Assembly: GCA_051715445.1 (NCBI GenBank)
Contig: JBPXJU010000023.1
Location: 171,914-235,913 of the forward strand
DNA: 64,000 nt
From: Bacteroidota bacterium
GTDB lineage: Bacteria; Bacteroidota; Bacteroidia; Cytophagales; Cyclobacteriaceae
Direction of reading: 5' to 3'
A program made the position numbers and the translations under genes. Shown in pieces: positions 41,901-48,487 of this stretch; the stretch's first letter is position 1, and every line of letters begins with the position of its first letter. The notes below the pieces were generated by a model, which worked only from the letters and a program-made list of their open reading frames with translations, was not told the origin of the DNA and made no database searches.

Positions 41901-43688
41901 TCAAATGGTTTTCATTAATTCAGCACGGTATTCGGTAAGGATGCGCGCTTTGGAAAGAAAGCCGAGGTACTGTTTATCTTTTACGACAGGCAGATTCCAT
42001 TGTCGCGTTTCATCAAACTTTTTCAGAATAACTGAAATACTGTCGTTAAAATCTACTGCGTGGGCTTCCGTCATCAGGTCTTTTGCAAAAGTGGTATCGT
42101 AAAGTTTGTTGTTGAAGATGATTTCGCGCACATGATCCAGATGCACTACACCCACCAACTCACCTTCGCGTGTTACCACCGGAAATGTGTTTCGTTTGGA
42201 GATTGAAATAACGCGAACCAGTAAACGCAAACTATCATTGGGGCGGATGGCCGAAAAATTTTGTTCCAGTAGATCCTGCAGATTGAGTTTGCTTAACAGA
42301 ATCTGATCGCGGTTATCGGCAGTAATATTAAGTAACCGCGAAAGTTTTTTTCCTTCCATAGAAAGCGGCTCGAAGTTTCGGGCTATGGCCAGACTTAATG
42401 CCGCAACAATCATGAGCGGAATAATCAGATCATAGCCTCCGGTTATTTCGGCAATCAGGAATATCGCGCAAAGCGGAGCATAGAAGATTCCACTTAGAAT
42501 ACCGGCCATGGCTACCAATGTAAAATTGGTTTCAGGTATTTGTGCAATGCCCGTCAGGTTAATCAACCGTGCAAACGCAAACCCCAGGTATGCTCCTACA
42601 AAAAGTGAAGGCCCGAAGTTGCCCCCGTTACCACCACTACCCAACGTTAACCCAACAGCCAATACTTTAATGAGCACAAGCGCACCAATGAACATTAAAA
42701 TGGTATAATCATTTTGCAGGTACTGGTAAATGATGCTCCCGTTTGCAACTTCAAGCGGTTTAAGGTTGGCCAGCATTTTTATACTCTGGTATCCTTCGCC
42801 AAACAGCGATGGGAAGAACAGGAGTAACACTGCCAATGCAAGTCCTCCTAGAATTATTTTCGTACGATTATTACTGCGGGCCGCAAAAAATTTCTCAGTG
42901 CGTTCTAACGTTCGCGCATAAAACAGCGACACCAATCCGGCCAGCAAGCCAAGTATAATGTAGAAATGAATGTTATGATAGTTGAAAGGTGCTTGCAGCG
43001 AGAAGGAAAGAATAATTCCTTCAGCTAAAATAATTTTAGAAAGCAACGCCCCGGTGGCAGCTGCAATGATAATAGGGATGAAGGCGCCAACGGTAACATC
43101 GGTTAATAATACTTCAATGGCAAATAATACTCCGGCAACAGGTGCATTAAAGGCCGCAGCAATACCGGCTGCTGCTCCGCAAGCCAGTAAAATGGTGCGG
43201 TCTTTATAAGGAAGATGGAAGTAGCTGCTGTAATTTGATCCGATAGCCGAACCCGTACTGACCATGGGCGACTCCAGTCCGACAGAACCACCGAAGCCAA
43301 CCGTTAAGGCACTGGTAATAATATGCGAGTAGGTTTGGCTTACCGGAAGTTTGGCCGATTTACGGGCAATAGAATAACCAATTTCAGCACTGCCTTTTTT
43401 GAAGTTACCCTTCAAACCAAATTTGATATAGATCACGGTTAGGGTAATACCAACAACCGGAAAAAGCGCGAAGAGGTAAAACTGCTCGTAGGTGGTAGCA
43501 TAATGATTAACCCAAACGCCAATGGTATGCACAAAAAACTTAAGTACAATTGCTGCCAGTGCTGAGAGTATGCCCACCAAAACACACGAGAGCATAAAAA
43601 ACTGGCGGGGTGATAACCGGTTGCGAGCAATAAAGAACAACTGCTTCAGGGTACGAAAAATAAACCGCTCGGTTTTGTGAGATTGCAT
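41901..43688 (-). CDS. ClC family chloride channel/transporter with CBS pair
   Basis: GSVGLESP, AAAFNAPVAGVLFAIE, GGNGGNFGPSLF, C-terminal CBS domains. Confidence 0.93.
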   Translation of the reverse strand: MQSHKTERFIFRTLKQLFFIARNRLSPRQFFMLSCVLVGILSALAAIVLKFFVHTIGVWVNHYATTYEQFYLFALFPVVGITLTVIYIKFGLKGNFKKGSAEIGYSIARKSAKLPVSQTYSHIITSALTVGFGGSVGLESPMVSTGSAIGSNYSSYFHLPYKDRTILLACGAAAGIAAAFNAPVAGVLFAIEVLLTDVTVGAFIPIIIAAATGALLSKIILAEGIILSFSLQAPFNYHNIHFYIILGLLAGLVSLFYARTLERTEKFFAARSNNRTKIILGGLALAVLLLFFPSLFGEGYQSIKMLANLKPLEVANGSIIYQYLQNDYTILMFIGALVLIKVLAVGLTLGSGGNGGNFGPSLFVGAYLGFAFARLINLTGIAQIPETNFTLVAMAGILSGIFYAPLCAIFLIAEITGGYDLIIPLMIVAALSLAIARNFEPLSMEGKKLSRLLNITADNRDQILLSKLNLQDLLEQNFSAIRPNDSLRLLVRVISISKRNTFPVVTREGELVGVVHLDHVREIIFNNKLYDTTFAKDLMTEAHAVDFNDSISVILKKFDETRQWNLPVVKDKQYLGFLSKARILTEYRAELMKTI

Positions 43689-43799: not shown

Positions 43800-44255
43800 A
43801 TGTCGTTAGAATCTGAAATAAAGCAGTCCCGGTTTCAAAGTGAACATCAGAAGGCCGCCATCAATGTGTTGCTTACCGGCAATTGGTTGTACCATCAGAA
43901 TGCACTTTTTTTAAAACCATTTGGACTTACACCCGAGCAGTTTAATGTGTTGCGGATTTTACGCGGCAACAATTCCAAACCGATGATGCTTTTAGACATT
44001 ACCGAAAGGATGATTGATAAAAGCAGCAACTGCACACGGTTGGTTGAAAAACTACGGCAAAAAGGTTGGGTTAAACGCGAAATCTGTGCAACCAATCGCA
44101 GGCAGGTAGATATAATTATAACCCCAAAAGGCCTTGCTGTTTTAACCAGGATAGATGCAGCTATTTCTCAGAATCCGTTTCAACACTTGCAAACCCGATT
44201 AACAAGGACAGAAGCCTCAGAACTTAATAGACTTTTAGATAAGGTTCGCGGTTAA
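43800..44255 (+). CDS. MarR family regulator
   Basis: LTPEQFNVLRILRG, SNCTRLVEKL, DRR-like NRRQV.I.IT.KG. Confidence 0.92.
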   Translation: MSLESEIKQSRFQSEHQKAAINVLLTGNWLYHQNALFLKPFGLTPEQFNVLRILRGNNSKPMMLLDITERMIDKSSNCTRLVEKLRQKGWVKREICATNRRQVDIIITPKGLAVLTRIDAAISQNPFQHLQTRLTRTEASELNRLLDKVRG

Positions 44256-44606
44256 TTCGAATCGTGGTTTTAGCAAACCCAGAATTTTATTTGGCCAAAT
44301 TCCAATACTTAAGAATTTATTAAAATAATTATGCAATCGGTTGATATTGCATTTTTACCCCTCTGAACAGGGTCATTACCCTCTGATTTTTCCATTTTGT
44401 TAAGGTATCGTTAAAATTTAGCCATGATTTTCAAAAATCATTATGATTTTTTTAAAACAGGCTTGTATTTAACCCTTCCGTAATCGGATTCTATAAAAAA
44501 TATTTAAAACTGGGTTAAAAATTACCATCAGGTTTGGATTCTTGTGCTTGTAATCCTAAAAAGAAACCTAAACCCAACCCTCAAATAACCCTAACCCATT
44601 TCACTT

Positions 44607-45932
44607 ATGATTGAAGTTTTATCTGATTCTACCGTACTCGACCCGGGCACGGCCGCAGCCCTGGCCGATTCTCTTCAGGTTCTCTCTGCGCGTATTACCG
44701 CAGCACAGAACACTGCGGCATTTACTACTAACAATGTGTGGATGATTCTTTCAGCCGCACTCGTATTTATTATGTCGCTTGGTTTTGCCTGCGTGGAGTC
44801 GGGTTTTACCCAGGCAAAAAACACGGTTAATATCCTGTTCAAAAATACAGTAGATACTGCCATTGGTATTGTGGTGTTTGCCTTGTTTGGTTTTGCCCTG
44901 ATGTACCCCGGCACATTTAACGGCTGGTTTGGCTTTGCCGGTTTTGGATTAAGCACCCCCGAAGGTTACGAACCTATTGCTTATGCCGGTGGTAAGTATA
45001 CCTACTGGACCGATTTTCTTTTTCAGGCTGTGTTTTGTGCTACTGCCGGTACAATTGTATCGGGCGCTGTAGCTGAACGTATTAAAATCAGTGCATACTT
45101 TATCTTCACACTTTTCCTTACGGGATTAATCTATCCGATTTTAGGAAGTTGGAAGTGGGGTGGCGGCTGGCTGAATGAATATGGTTTTTATGACTTTGCA
45201 GGTTCAACTATTGTACACTCAGTAGGTGGTTGGGCGGCATTGGCCGGAGTAATAGTATTAGGCCCTCGTCTGGGTAAATACGATAATGGTTCCCCTAAAA
45301 CTTTTGCTAACTCTTCTGTACCACTTGCTGTAATTGGTGTGTTCCTGTTGTGGCTGGGTTGGTTCGGATTTAATGGTGGTTCTGTACTATCGGCAGATCC
45401 TGAATTAATCTCATTGGTGTGCGTAACTACTGCACTCGCTGCTTGTACCGGTGGCATTGGCGGTATGATTGGTGGATTGATTGCCTTTAAACGCCTTGAT
45501 CTGGGTATGGTACTAAACGGTATTCTTGCCGGCCTGGTAGGTATTACTGCCGGAGCCGATCAGATGTCTCCCAACGAAGCCATATTCATTGGTCTGCTTT
45601 GCGGAACGGTAGTAGTGTTTGCAGTTATCTTTTTTGATAAAGCTAAAATCGATGATCCTGTGGGTGCCATCTCGGTGCATCTGGTGTGTGGTATCATCGG
45701 TACACTTGCTGTTGGTGCATTGGGAAAACTAGCCGGTGGTGAACAATTCGTAAAACAATTAGTAGGCGTTGCTGCCTATGGTGGCGGAGCCTTTGTGGGT
45801 TCGCTGCTTGTATTCTTTATTCTTAATAAGGTAATGAAAGGTGGTATTCGGGTATCGGCTCAGCACGAGAAAGAAGGCTTGGATAGCCATGAGCATGGTA
45901 TGCGTGGATACACTATTACCTATGAAGAATAA
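44607..45932 (+). CDS. amt: ammonium transporter
   Basis: FQAVF, SGAVAER, DFAGSTIVH, GWFGFNGGS, DDPVGAISVH (twin His). Confidence 0.97.
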   Translation: MIEVLSDSTVLDPGTAAALADSLQVLSARITAAQNTAAFTTNNVWMILSAALVFIMSLGFACVESGFTQAKNTVNILFKNTVDTAIGIVVFALFGFALMYPGTFNGWFGFAGFGLSTPEGYEPIAYAGGKYTYWTDFLFQAVFCATAGTIVSGAVAERIKISAYFIFTLFLTGLIYPILGSWKWGGGWLNEYGFYDFAGSTIVHSVGGWAALAGVIVLGPRLGKYDNGSPKTFANSSVPLAVIGVFLLWLGWFGFNGGSVLSADPELISLVCVTTALAACTGGIGGMIGGLIAFKRLDLGMVLNGILAGLVGITAGADQMSPNEAIFIGLLCGTVVVFAVIFFDKAKIDDPVGAISVHLVCGIIGTLAVGALGKLAGGEQFVKQLVGVAAYGGGAFVGSLLVFFILNKVMKGGIRVSAQHEKEGLDSHEHGMRGYTITYEE

Positions 45933-45942
45933 ATAAAAATAA

Positions 45943-46055
45943 TTGCCATGCAATGCAAGTTGGCCAGGCGGGCCACTTGCTAGCGCGGCAAAAAAAACAC
46001 CAGGAAGTCTCAGCTGATAATTGCAGTCATCCACTGAGAATCTCCCTGGCCATTG
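45943..46055 (+). ncRNA. candidate structured intercistronic RNA
   Basis: Two GC-rich stems plus an exact 8-nt cross-complementarity (see findings); no known family recognised. Confidence 0.3.
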
Positions 46056-46079
46056 TAAAAAATTACAACCCTCAAAATT

Positions 46080-47351
46080 ATGAAAAACCCTATAAGCGTA
46101 TTGTCCTTATTGGCAATTATTACATTATCGGTAAATGCAGTTGCACAGGAAACACCCGTGTATGCATCGGCCAACACAAACGATAAAGAGAAGAAGAAAA
46201 AAGAAGAGCAGAAAAACGAGGAGATGAAAACAACTGATCAAAAAGAAGAGGAAGAAGAACCAACCTTTACACTGTCAGGATCAATTGATACCTATTTTCA
46301 CTCTTCATTTGGTTACCGTAATGGTGGCACTGTTGCACCCTCAACATCATTTGCAAATTTAAAGGGCTTCTCTTTGGGAATGGCAAATTTGATTGCTTCT
46401 TATAACGGAGAAAAATCAGGCTTTGTAGCAGATTTGGTTTTTGGGCCACGGGGATCTGATGCGGTTTTTAATTCAGGAATTGGATCTTATACAAACCTTG
46501 CTGGTGGAAGCAGTGGCCAGATCGTTAATCAATTGTATGGTTATTATAAATTCAATGATAAGGTTACGCTTAACCTCGGGCAGTTCAATACATTTCTAGG
46601 TTACGAAGTAATCTCGCCTGCGGTTAACTTTCATTACTCTACCTCATATCTCTTTTCTTGGGGGCCTTTCAATCACACCGGTGCGCGTTTGGATATAGCT
46701 GGTGAAAATGGATTGGTTGCCAAATTGGCGGTTATGAACCCAACAGATTTTCTTGAATTCAATCCGGTAAATACCTATACAGTGGGCGCTCAGATTGGTA
46801 AAACATCGGATGCCGGTGGCGTATGGTTAAACTTTTTGTATGGCGATCAGGATGGTACTTTGAATGAGGATGATGGTAGCTTAGGTACTGGCGATAGCTC
46901 TTTGGGAAGTTTATTTCAGGGAGATATTACGCTTGGTTATAATTTAAGTGAGAAGTTCTACTTAGGTTTTAATACTTCTTTCCAAACCGTGGCCGCTGGT
47001 GAAGAAGTTGATGCAGGTGGAGACATTGTAGATATTGATGCTGATGCCTCTTCTTTCTTTGGTGTAGCAGTCTATCCAAAAGTTACCGTTTCCGAAACTT
47101 TCGCCTTAGGGCTACGTGCTGAGTATTTCGCAATCAAAAATTACCACCTGCCATTGTTTGGCCTTGATGATGAAGGCAACGGAAATGTAATAGAGTTTAC
47201 ATTATCCGGAAATTATAAAGTGGGTGGCTTTACGTTCATTCCTGAATTGCGTGTGGATATGACTTCAGAGAATTCTTTTAATAAAGAGTTTGATGCTGTA
47301 GATAAAAAATTGCTACCAACCCTTAACCTGGCAGCTGTCTATAAATTTTAA
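46080..47351 (+). CDS. outer membrane beta-barrel porin (BBP2/OmpL-like)
   Basis: Signal peptide; GSIDTYF, GQFNTFLGYEVISP..N..YSTSYLFS.GPF.HTG; C-terminal YKF. Confidence 0.85.
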   Translation: MKNPISVLSLLAIITLSVNAVAQETPVYASANTNDKEKKKKEEQKNEEMKTTDQKEEEEEPTFTLSGSIDTYFHSSFGYRNGGTVAPSTSFANLKGFSLGMANLIASYNGEKSGFVADLVFGPRGSDAVFNSGIGSYTNLAGGSSGQIVNQLYGYYKFNDKVTLNLGQFNTFLGYEVISPAVNFHYSTSYLFSWGPFNHTGARLDIAGENGLVAKLAVMNPTDFLEFNPVNTYTVGAQIGKTSDAGGVWLNFLYGDQDGTLNEDDGSLGTGDSSLGSLFQGDITLGYNLSEKFYLGFNTSFQTVAAGEEVDAGGDIVDIDADASSFFGVAVYPKVTVSETFALGLRAEYFAIKNYHLPLFGLDDEGNGNVIEFTLSGNYKVGGFTFIPELRVDMTSENSFNKEFDAVDKKLLPTLNLAAVYKF

Positions 47352-47378
47352 ATCAATCCATAACAAACAAAACTACCT

Positions 47379-48437
47379 ATGTCAAAATCAAAACTTGAGT
47401 ACATCTGGCTGGATGGATACGCACCCACCCAAAGCCTGCGCAGTAAAACCAAAATTGTTAAAAACTTTAATGGCACATTAGAAGATTGTCCCATGTGGTC
47501 GTTCGATGGAAGTTCTACCGAACAGGCACCTGGTGGTTCAAGCGATTGTTTGCTCGAACCGGTAGCCATATTTCCAGATCCCGCAAGGAAAGATGCATAC
47601 CTGGTAATGTGCGAAGTATTAAGTCCCGATGGCACCCCACATCCAACAAACGGCCGCGCTACAATTGAAGATGACGACCGCGACTTCTGGTTTGGGTTTG
47701 AACAGGAGTACTTCCTGTGGGACCCGGGCACTAATAAACCCCTCGGGTTTCCGGAGAATGGATACCCTGCACCACAAGGTCCGTACTATTGCTCTGTGGG
47801 TGCAAAGAATGCATTCGGTCGTTCTATTGTAGAAGAGCATCTTGATTATTGTTTGGCTGCGGGCATTAACGTAGAAGGCATCAATGCCGAAGTAGCACCA
47901 GGCCAATGGGAGTTTCAGATTTTTGCAAAAGGTGCAAAAGAGGCAGGCGATCAGGTGTGGGTAGCGCGTTACCTGCTGGAGCGCACGGCCGAAAAGTATG
48001 GTGTAGCTATTAATTGGCATTGCAAACCATTAGGAGCAACCGATTGGAATGGCTCAGGTATGCATGCCAACTTCTCTAACTCGTTGTTGCGCGAGGCCGG
48101 TTCGAAAGATACTTACGATATGGTGTGCAACGCATTTGCCCCGTATGTAAAAGAACATATTGCTGTGTACGGTGCCGATAACCACCTGCGCTTAACCGGC
48201 AAACACGAAACCCAAAGCATCGATAAATTTTCTTATGGTATTTCCGATAGGGGCGCCTCTATCCGCATTCCGATTGCCACCGTTGAAAACGGATGGAAAG
48301 GATGGCTGGAAGATCGCAGACCCAACTCGGCAGCCGACCCTTACAAAGTTGCAGCCCGCATCATCACCACGGTGAAAACTGCGGATAAACTGGAACCAGT
48401 ATTGGTTAGCATGAACGGTAACGGAAAAGGGAGGTAG
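47379..48437 (+). CDS. glnII: glutamine synthetase type II
   Basis: LEYIWLDG, WSFDGSST, FGFEQEY, GINAEVAPGQWEFQI, DWNGSGMHANFS, RGASIRIP, LEDRRP. Confidence 0.95.
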   Translation: MSKSKLEYIWLDGYAPTQSLRSKTKIVKNFNGTLEDCPMWSFDGSSTEQAPGGSSDCLLEPVAIFPDPARKDAYLVMCEVLSPDGTPHPTNGRATIEDDDRDFWFGFEQEYFLWDPGTNKPLGFPENGYPAPQGPYYCSVGAKNAFGRSIVEEHLDYCLAAGINVEGINAEVAPGQWEFQIFAKGAKEAGDQVWVARYLLERTAEKYGVAINWHCKPLGATDWNGSGMHANFSNSLLREAGSKDTYDMVCNAFAPYVKEHIAVYGADNHLRLTGKHETQSIDKFSYGISDRGASIRIPIATVENGWKGWLEDRRPNSAADPYKVAARIITTVKTADKLEPVLVSMNGNGKGR

Positions 48438-48457
48438 ACTTTTCCGTGTGTGAAGTG

Positions 48458-48487
48458 AAAAGGGGAAGCGTAAGCTTCTCCTTTTTT
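48458..48487 (+). terminator. intrinsic terminator after glnII
   Basis: AAAAGGGGAAGC-GTAA-GCTTCTCCTTTTTT. Confidence 0.85.

Follow-up and report, generated by a model that had tools for sequence, protein, structure and literature searches.

In Escherichia coli, the small RNA GadY is encoded within the spacer of two co-directional genes, on the strand opposite to them, and its pairing directs the processing of the bicistronic mRNA. Another group of antisense regulators, the PUL-associated DonS and DonS-like cis-antisense RNAs, is found in Bacteroides, in the same phylum as the organism analysed here; according to the part of PMC7366714 available to us, they are encoded opposite the 5' part of outer-membrane protein genes, homologues of susC, and repression of the neighbouring locus is their presumed role. 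Structured RNAs have also been described beside glutamine synthetase and ammonium transporter genes, namely the glnA RNA (RF01739) and Downstream-peptide (RF01704) (PMC2864571, partial text), both of which are sense-strand elements of cyanobacteria and marine metagenomes. Finally, the small RNAs NsiR4 of cyanobacteria and GlnZ of enterobacteria (for GlnZ, PMC9731577, partial text) are tied to the regulation of glutamine synthetase. The source of GlnZ is the 3' UTR of glnA, on the sense strand.

Here, we describe a computational analysis of the spacer between an ammonium transporter gene (amt) and a porin gene that is followed by a glutamine synthetase gene (glnII), within a 64,000-nucleotide stretch of DNA from a Bacteroidota bacterium (the window). 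To our knowledge, nitrogen control in Bacteroidota is poorly understood, and beyond gut Bacteroides the post-transcriptional regulators of the phylum have barely been charted. The strand-sensitive evidence presented below suggests that the functional RNA of this spacer most likely lies on the minus strand, opposite amt and the porin gene, where we predict, as the probable product, a small RNA of ~80 nt (45990..46070) antisense to the amt-porin spacer. Such an RNA would most likely act as a bacterial regulator of an ordinary type, as opposed to a switch that senses a metabolite. Small antisense RNAs equipped with a promoter and a terminator of their own are well known; what is new is the family.

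The DonS-like RNAs and GadY would be the closest analogues of the predicted RNA. Like GadY, it would be an antisense RNA located between two co-directional genes of one transcript. GadY, however, belongs to another phylum, is unrelated in sequence and overlaps the 3' UTR of the upstream gene, whereas here the overlap would extend to where translation of the downstream gene begins, and the putative promoter overlaps that gene's start codon. To DonS there is no sequence or Rfam relation; the cluster here comprises a BBP2 porin and GlnII and is concerned with nitrogen, not polysaccharide, and the RNA lies between two co-directional genes and is known from sequence alone. In contrast to the sense-strand RF01739 and RF01704, whose models find no match, it is the antisense strand that is favoured here. 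NsiR4 and GlnZ show no homology to the predicted RNA, and its minus-strand location is unlike the sense-strand origin of GlnZ. The motif thus compared is a candidate RNA family with covariation support, locked to a porin-glutamine synthetase module in several genera of soil and wastewater Cytophagales, and would provide a testable handle on nitrogen regulation in Bacteroidota.

Gene order and hairpins of the amt-porin spacer

The genes and the terminator of the region, in window coordinates, are as follows.

41901-43688, minus strand: CLC channel gene
43800-44255, plus strand: MarR-family regulator gene
44607..45932, plus strand: ammonium transporter gene (amt), 441 aa, Pfam Ammonium_transp 3.6e-111
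46080..47351, plus strand: outer-membrane beta-barrel porin (BBP2 / OmpL-like), 423 aa, Pfam PF07642 6.3e-59
47379..48437, plus strand: GlnII-like glutamine synthetase, 352 aa, Pfam Gln-synt_N and Gln-synt_C
48457..48486, plus strand: intrinsic terminator 3' of glnII, a 13-pair hairpin followed by a T run

Amt scored 383.5 bits against NCBIfam TIGR00836, exceeding the cut-off of 343.3, and the glutamine synthetase scored 402.9 bits against NCBIfam GlnII, under the cut-off of 500. Between the amt stop codon (45930-45932) and the porin ATG (46080) lies a spacer of 147 nt. Further upstream, the MarR-amt intergenic region (350 nt) also carries a hairpin and T run at 44368-44385, as well as the window's sole Rfam match to NsiR4, on the minus strand at 44299-44361, which is chance-level (17.9 bits against a gathering threshold of 40, E 1.7).

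The hairpins described in the spacer by the original prediction are present. Stem 1, GCAAG-T-TGGCC / GGCCA-CTTGC, occupies 45955-45980 and is enclosed by TTGCC (45943-47) and GGCAA (45987-91); an A8 run follows at 45990-45997; and stem 2 pairs CCAGG (46000-04) with CCTGG (46045-49) and, within these, TCTCAG (46008-13) with CTGAGA (46034-39). On the plus strand, as had also been stated, no run of U comes after either stem. A third small hairpin, at 46053-46068, had been missed. Both strands of the 147-nt spacer fold better than any of 200 shuffled sequences, the plus strand at -45.9 kcal/mol (z -4.35) and the minus strand at -58.9 kcal/mol (z -6.03). The minus-strand elements to which the remainder of the analysis refers are listed here.

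45943..45991, minus strand: stem 1, a variable GC-rich hairpin, then the U-rich run AAUUAUUUUUAUUU
45990..45997, minus strand: U8 run (read as A8 on the plus strand), 2 nt past the long hairpin; putative 3' terminus of the predicted RNA
46042-46050 with 45999-46007, minus strand: P1 of the long interrupted hairpin (stem 2, 45999..46050)
46033-46039 with 46008-46014, minus strand: P2 of the long hairpin
46027-46031 with 46016-46020, minus strand: P3 of the long hairpin, with the apical loop at 46021-46026
46052..46069, minus strand: P0, a small hairpin rich in A/U at the 5' side of the predicted RNA
46073..46080, minus strand: TAATTTTG, a match to the Bacteroidetes -7 element TAHHTTTG

It had been proposed that the two stems form a two-state switch, in which TGGCCAGG of stem 1 pairs with CCTGGCCA of stem 2 and both stems are broken. 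The complementarity of 8 nt on which this reading is based does exist: TGGCCAGG (45961-68) is exactly complementary to CCTGGCCA (46045-52), the end of which lies 27 nt 5' of the ATG at 46080, and the match hinges on the palindrome TGGCCA, which is present twice. The energetics and the comparison with relatives nevertheless make such a switch extremely unlikely. Forcing the TGGCCAGG/CCTGGCCA helix yields -33.2 kcal/mol as against -45.9 kcal/mol, a penalty of 12.7 kcal/mol, and the probability of these pairs in the ensemble is ~5e-9. The closest relative, locus L058, has the same stem 2 (66 nt identical) and a different stem 1 that lacks the complementary word, so that the pairing is lost there; most members of the motif family have no stem 1 at all; and a search for a conserved alternative pairing on the plus strand found none. 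The idea of a structured RNA in a nitrogen-assimilation cluster thus held, and the element proved to be conserved, whereas its operation as a switch, the unity of its two stems and its placement on the sense strand did not: stem 2 belongs to a conserved motif, stem 1 is a separate, variable hairpin, and the sense-strand riboswitch or attenuator that had been envisaged is less likely than an RNA on the strand opposite amt and porin.

No match to a described RNA family was found in the spacer. Rfam 15 cmscan of both strands gave nothing in the spacer at E up to 10, and a search of nine related loci gave nothing at the motif at E up to 5. The remark that the element does not resemble the glnA riboswitch is borne out, since RF01739 is among the models without a match in either search. 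A glutamine riboswitch was rejected on these grounds for both RF01739 and RF01704, neither of whose models, which describe a three-stem junction with E-loop and pseudoknot, gives a match. The literature covered, with subscription journals and supplements outside its scope, yielded no description of an RNA of such kind.

Distribution and conservation of the motif

A search with the porin in public genomes and metagenomes yielded 43 loci, which are labelled mostly as Ohtaekwangia, Chryseolinea, Chryseosolibacter, Fulvivirgaceae, Cyclobacteriaceae or Cytophagales, and roughly two thirds of which share an element in the 200 nt upstream of the porin ATG. This motif consists of stem 2 and the tail up to the porin ATG (45990-46080 in the window), and it adjoins porin-glnII in ~30 Cytophagales loci. 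As laid out in alignment A2, it comprises a conserved TCAC, the three-part hairpin P1/P2/P3, a near-invariant tail forming the A/U hairpin P0, and CAAAnnTATG at the start codon. A covariance model (R1) built on it gave 33 matches in 53 sources, 32 of which were judged real and 31 of which are distinct. The clade that carries the motif lies within Cytophagales, the relatives being labelled Ohtaekwangia, Chryseosolibacter and Fulvivirgaceae. We regard the motif as an undescribed RNA family, represented by one copy per genome beside porin-glnII.

Single-copy occurrence was found by both BLAST and covariance model. In the genome from which the window derives (3.83 Mb), the 147-nt spacer matched only itself, other BLAST matches being 14-30 nt long with E values of at least 0.49, and the covariance model found one real copy, the next match having an E value of 5.2. 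A REP-like element, which would have spoken against the original prediction, is thereby set aside, and a REP-like or MITE repeat is ruled out, one copy per genome having been found instead of many. One good copy was likewise present in four of five further whole genomes, and 10 of the 11 copies located by whole-genome searches adjoin the porin gene, the exception being a second copy in genome G036. That copy (L089:1501-1602) is unlinked and lies ~0.9 kb after a porin gene; no plus-strand gene is found downstream of it, and a convergent minus-strand gene for a helicase-like protein ends there. Its -7 box region is degenerate, and its antisense strand has a hairpin followed by UUUCU.

Within the family, the covariance model matched 5 of 150 other sampled genomes, including one of the two other genomes of the same genus. 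The latter, G146 (locus L087), has the commoner of two apical types (see below). The other, G027, which is reported to be 100% complete, gave no match to the 801-nt amt-spacer-porin DNA or to the RNA model, so that not every member of the genus has the module. In 150 other genomes from the order, the covariance model found, besides a known family member, two weak matches (E 0.001 and 0.006); these occur in other families, are not near amt, porin or glnII, and were judged unrelated. When the 801-nt DNA was used as query against 150 other genomes of the family, 62 matched, through the coding flanks only: no match ran past query position 343 or started before position 602, so that the spacer itself remained unmatched. 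The order amt-porin-glnII is present in 12 fetched loci, and every one of their spacers folds to a GC-rich hairpin, the sequences being unrelated.

The closest relatives, loci L058 and L061, encode Amt proteins that are 89.5% and 83% identical to that of the window, and their alignment with it reveals unequal conservation. Between the window and L058, identity is 85/88 over the motif part (45992-46079), with a perfect run of 66 nt (45991-46056), compared with 244/303 over the last 300 nt of amt, 240/305 over the first 300 nt of the porin gene and 44/63 over the stem 1 part. In the three-way alignment with L061, stem 1 likewise diverges and stem 2 with its tail is almost unchanged. Two types of Amt, ~85% and ~28% identical to that of the window, are encoded upstream of the same motif-porin-glnII unit (loci L041-L083). 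Because two such different amt types precede it, the motif travels with the porin gene and not with amt. With the second type (~28%), only 5-12 nt separate the stop codon of amt from the motif, too little for the porin gene to have a promoter of its own there.

In the A2 and A4 alignments, the apex of the hairpin occurs in two forms. The commoner is a short helix, GGGU/ACCC, that closes a loop of 7 nt; the rarer and longer one (window 46016-46031) is that of the window copy, L058, L061, L047-L049 and L057. In the commoner loop type alone, a pseudoknot between the loop UCAC and GUGA after P1 is possible.

Strand, ends and promoter of the predicted RNA

The covariation that the original prediction had put forward as a check was examined on the motif alignments, and the helices covary in both orientations. 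In the plus-orientation alignment (A3), 83.5% of cells are paired, against 73.7% in shuffles, and 13 of 18 pairs have changed on both sides; in the minus-orientation alignment (A5), 19 of 24 pairs have changed on both sides, and P1 and P2 are 95.5% and 92.8% paired. The observed values were attained by none of 500 shuffles in either alignment, and the scores of slid controls were far lower. Since A3 and A5 were fitted to the proposed structures, the sequences are related and A5 includes two doubtful rows (L030 and L098), these figures are supportive and do not constitute a formal test. Individual examples include compensatory changes in the inner helix of L061 and, in P0, a compensatory A-U to U-A change between the window and L058; four central pairs of P0 are kept in most A5 rows.

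The mismatches that remain distinguish the two strands. In the plus orientation there are 60 A.C or C.A cells against 12 G.U or U.G cells, with the qualification that the kinship of the sequences makes cell counts overstate independent events and that the A.C excess resides mainly in five columns. Because these 60 cells become wobble pairs on the minus strand, 507 of 550 cells pair there, as against 459 of 550 on the plus strand, and pairing of P1 rises from 75.8% to 95.5%. In 24 of 31 instances the minus strand also folds more stably than the plus strand, the respective means being -29.65 and -22.69 kcal/mol; for the predicted RNA of the window the minus-strand fold has -32.8 kcal/mol. Strand-sensitive statistics can thus overturn a sense-strand reading made by eye. 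All copies but one sit at a fixed position right before the porin ATG, which is equally to be expected of a sense-strand leader; the exception, the second copy in G036, is not a 5' leader because it has no plus-strand gene downstream. Nine public sequencing runs contain the stretch, each of them with a small share or of unknown kind, and the four that were examined consist of contigs. These contigs, among them one from an RNA library (45830-45978) and one probably from DNA (45891-46126), carry no strand, start, end or level and are evidence neither way. The possibility that the minus strand has a conserved small ORF was rejected: that of the window copy has 8 codons, but the AUG is missing in most members.

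The sequences at the ends of the hairpins differ between the strands as well. In the window copy, only the minus strand has a GC-rich hairpin followed by a U run, the hallmark of an intrinsic terminator; on the plus strand an A-rich sequence follows both hairpins, and stem 1 is not a terminator there because A8 follows it. The minus-strand U8 and the U-rich run after stem 1 would explain both the A8 run and the absence of a U tract from the sense strand. We read stem 1 as a probable second terminator, which would serve the putative antisense RNA as a back-up, and in L058 and L061 a minus-strand hairpin and U run are retained despite the divergence of stem 1. Across the 31 instances, a run of at least four U within 12 nt of P1 is present on the minus strand in 11 and a further hairpin followed by a U-rich run in 14; some of these further hairpins lie opposite the coding sequence of amt and could have arisen by chance. 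One or other type of end occurs in 24 of 31 instances on the minus strand, compared with 3 of 31 in the same stretch of the plus strand, and seven have no minus-strand terminator-like end by the rule used. A terminator scanner restricted to one plain stem with a loop of 3-8 nt listed neither spacer hairpin, its rule being blind to an interrupted hairpin.

At the other end of the motif, the conserved CAAAnnTATG has the reverse complement CATAnnTTTG and so contains the Bacteroidetes -7 element TAnnTTTG. In the window this box is TAATTTTG, whose first T is the complement of the A in the porin ATG. According to the part of PMC6847099 available to us, T-12, A-11, T-8, T-7, T-6 and G-5 are near-invariant in this element, the refined consensus is TAHHTTTG and a -33 element is barely evident; the introduction of PMC7366714, likewise seen in part, agrees on the -7 consensus and on a weak -33 element, which in Flavobacterium is weak or undetectable by both accounts. 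With the consensus that these portions of the two papers give, and the distance from it to the start site, the antisense start would lie at ~46068-46070. Of 32 aligned rows, 22 have TAnnTTTG exactly and vary at the two free positions, where no row has G; in the other 10 the exact box is absent, six of them differing only in the final G, which is replaced by A. No TTG or TTTG is conserved at a fixed -33 spacing, the commonest spacing being shared by 6 of 31 instances, and a sigma-70 promoter scan found nothing in the spacer. The box occurs in the same register at 4 of 2980 crude ORF starts of the genome, and 34 starts carry it anywhere from -20 to +3; given this rarity, it is not a general start-codon feature here. 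Over the window as a whole TAnnTTTG is depleted, with 47 occurrences found and 74 expected. A second TAGTTTTG, at 47368-47375 on the minus strand, lies just ahead of the glnII ATG (47379); it is absent from L058 and is probably there by chance.

Mode of action and competing explanations

We propose that transcription of the minus-strand RNA would be directed by the sigma-A type -7 box TAATTTTG (46080->46073), which overlaps the porin start codon, and would begin near 46069. The transcript would form P0 and then the long conserved hairpin P1-P3 (stem 2), and it would end at U8 (45997->45990), with stem 1 and its U-rich run serving as a second terminator. Its complementarity to the RNA between the amt and porin cistrons would be complete, extending to a point ~10 nt short of the porin AUG, and the antisense promoter would fire head-on against transcription arriving from amt. 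Pairing might block translation of the porin and of coupled glnII, or might trigger a cleavage that uncouples amt from porin-glnII. In this phylum translation proceeds without Shine-Dalgarno pairing and relies on an unstructured A-rich start region, as stated in the part of PMC6847099 available to us; if starts are sensitive to structure in this manner, antisense pairing would hinder the translation of porin and glnII, or would yield a duplex for cleavage. Antisense control of porin-glnII in cis can be put forward tentatively as the mode of action overall, and since the loops are conserved in sequence, the RNA may equally have a target in trans or bind a protein.

That the minus-strand RNA is real and acts mainly in trans on other mRNAs, or binds a protein, so that its position beside porin-glnII reflects co-regulation, strikes us as unlikely. 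The conserved loop and linker sequences, which a pure antisense RNA would not need, and the second, unlinked copy in G036 are what such a role would predict; inspection of 30 loci by eye, however, revealed no conserved complementarity between the RNA loops and glnII start regions, and the tight linkage of 10 of 11 copies to the porin gene suits a role in cis. A similarly doubtful place belongs to a sense-strand cis RNA, a leader of porin-glnII (riboswitch-like, protein-binding, attenuator or processing site) that would respond to nitrogen and act on termination or translation. Its fixed distance to the porin ATG in all copies but one, the covariation of its helices in the plus orientation and the nitrogen-assimilation genes downstream are consistent with a leader; so are the plus-strand hairpin, which is followed by the U-rich stretch UUAUUGUU and a small hairpin near the start codon, and the sensitivity of translation in the phylum to structure near the start (PMC6847099, in the part available). 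A leader would not be expected to retain the C.A/A.C mismatches that persist in P1 (60 against 12 G.U cells, with P1 75.8% paired against 95.5% on the minus strand) or to fold more weakly on its own strand in 24 of 31 instances, and the orphan copy of G036, with no plus-strand gene downstream, the lack of any match to a riboswitch or leader in Rfam and the lack of a conserved alternative pairing also argue against it. Rather improbable, in our judgement, is a further pair of possibilities, either a new sense leader that senses a metabolite or protein and gates porin and GlnII by nitrogen status, the antisense features being secondary, or function on both strands. A sense leader, if true, would be the first nitrogen riboswitch-like element of Bacteroidota; were both strands functional, a sense leader and an antisense RNA would share sequence, which would explain why conservation exceeds that of the flanking genes.

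Two readings that dispense with a dedicated RNA are less probable again. The hairpins might be mere terminators or insulators, possibly bidirectional, as all 12 other orthologous spacers first examined fold to GC-rich hairpins of unrelated sequence and stem 1 varies in sequence yet stays a hairpin. Terminators alone would not be expected to keep 97% identity while the flanking genes fall to ~80%; they leave the conserved loops, the 5' arm and the promoter-like box unexplained, and there is no minus-strand gene upstream that would require one at the amt-porin spacer. We consider this reading very unlikely, and still more improbable is a palindromic site in the DNA for a nitrogen regulator, which would be in keeping with an inverted repeat near the start codon in a regulated cluster. 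The arms of such a site would not be expected to change sequence while staying complementary, and the strand-unequal mismatches (60 against 12) are not predicted by the symmetry of DNA. An antisense RNA remains, for these reasons, the reading that we favour.

Antisense RNAs in the amt-porin spacer may be more widely spread than the model detects. Four loci of more distant family members without a clear motif (L029, L030, L035 and L024) have an A7-A8 run before the spacer hairpin, which corresponds to a U run on the antisense strand. One of these, L030, ends in CAAAATTATG and scores 27.8 bits with a second model.
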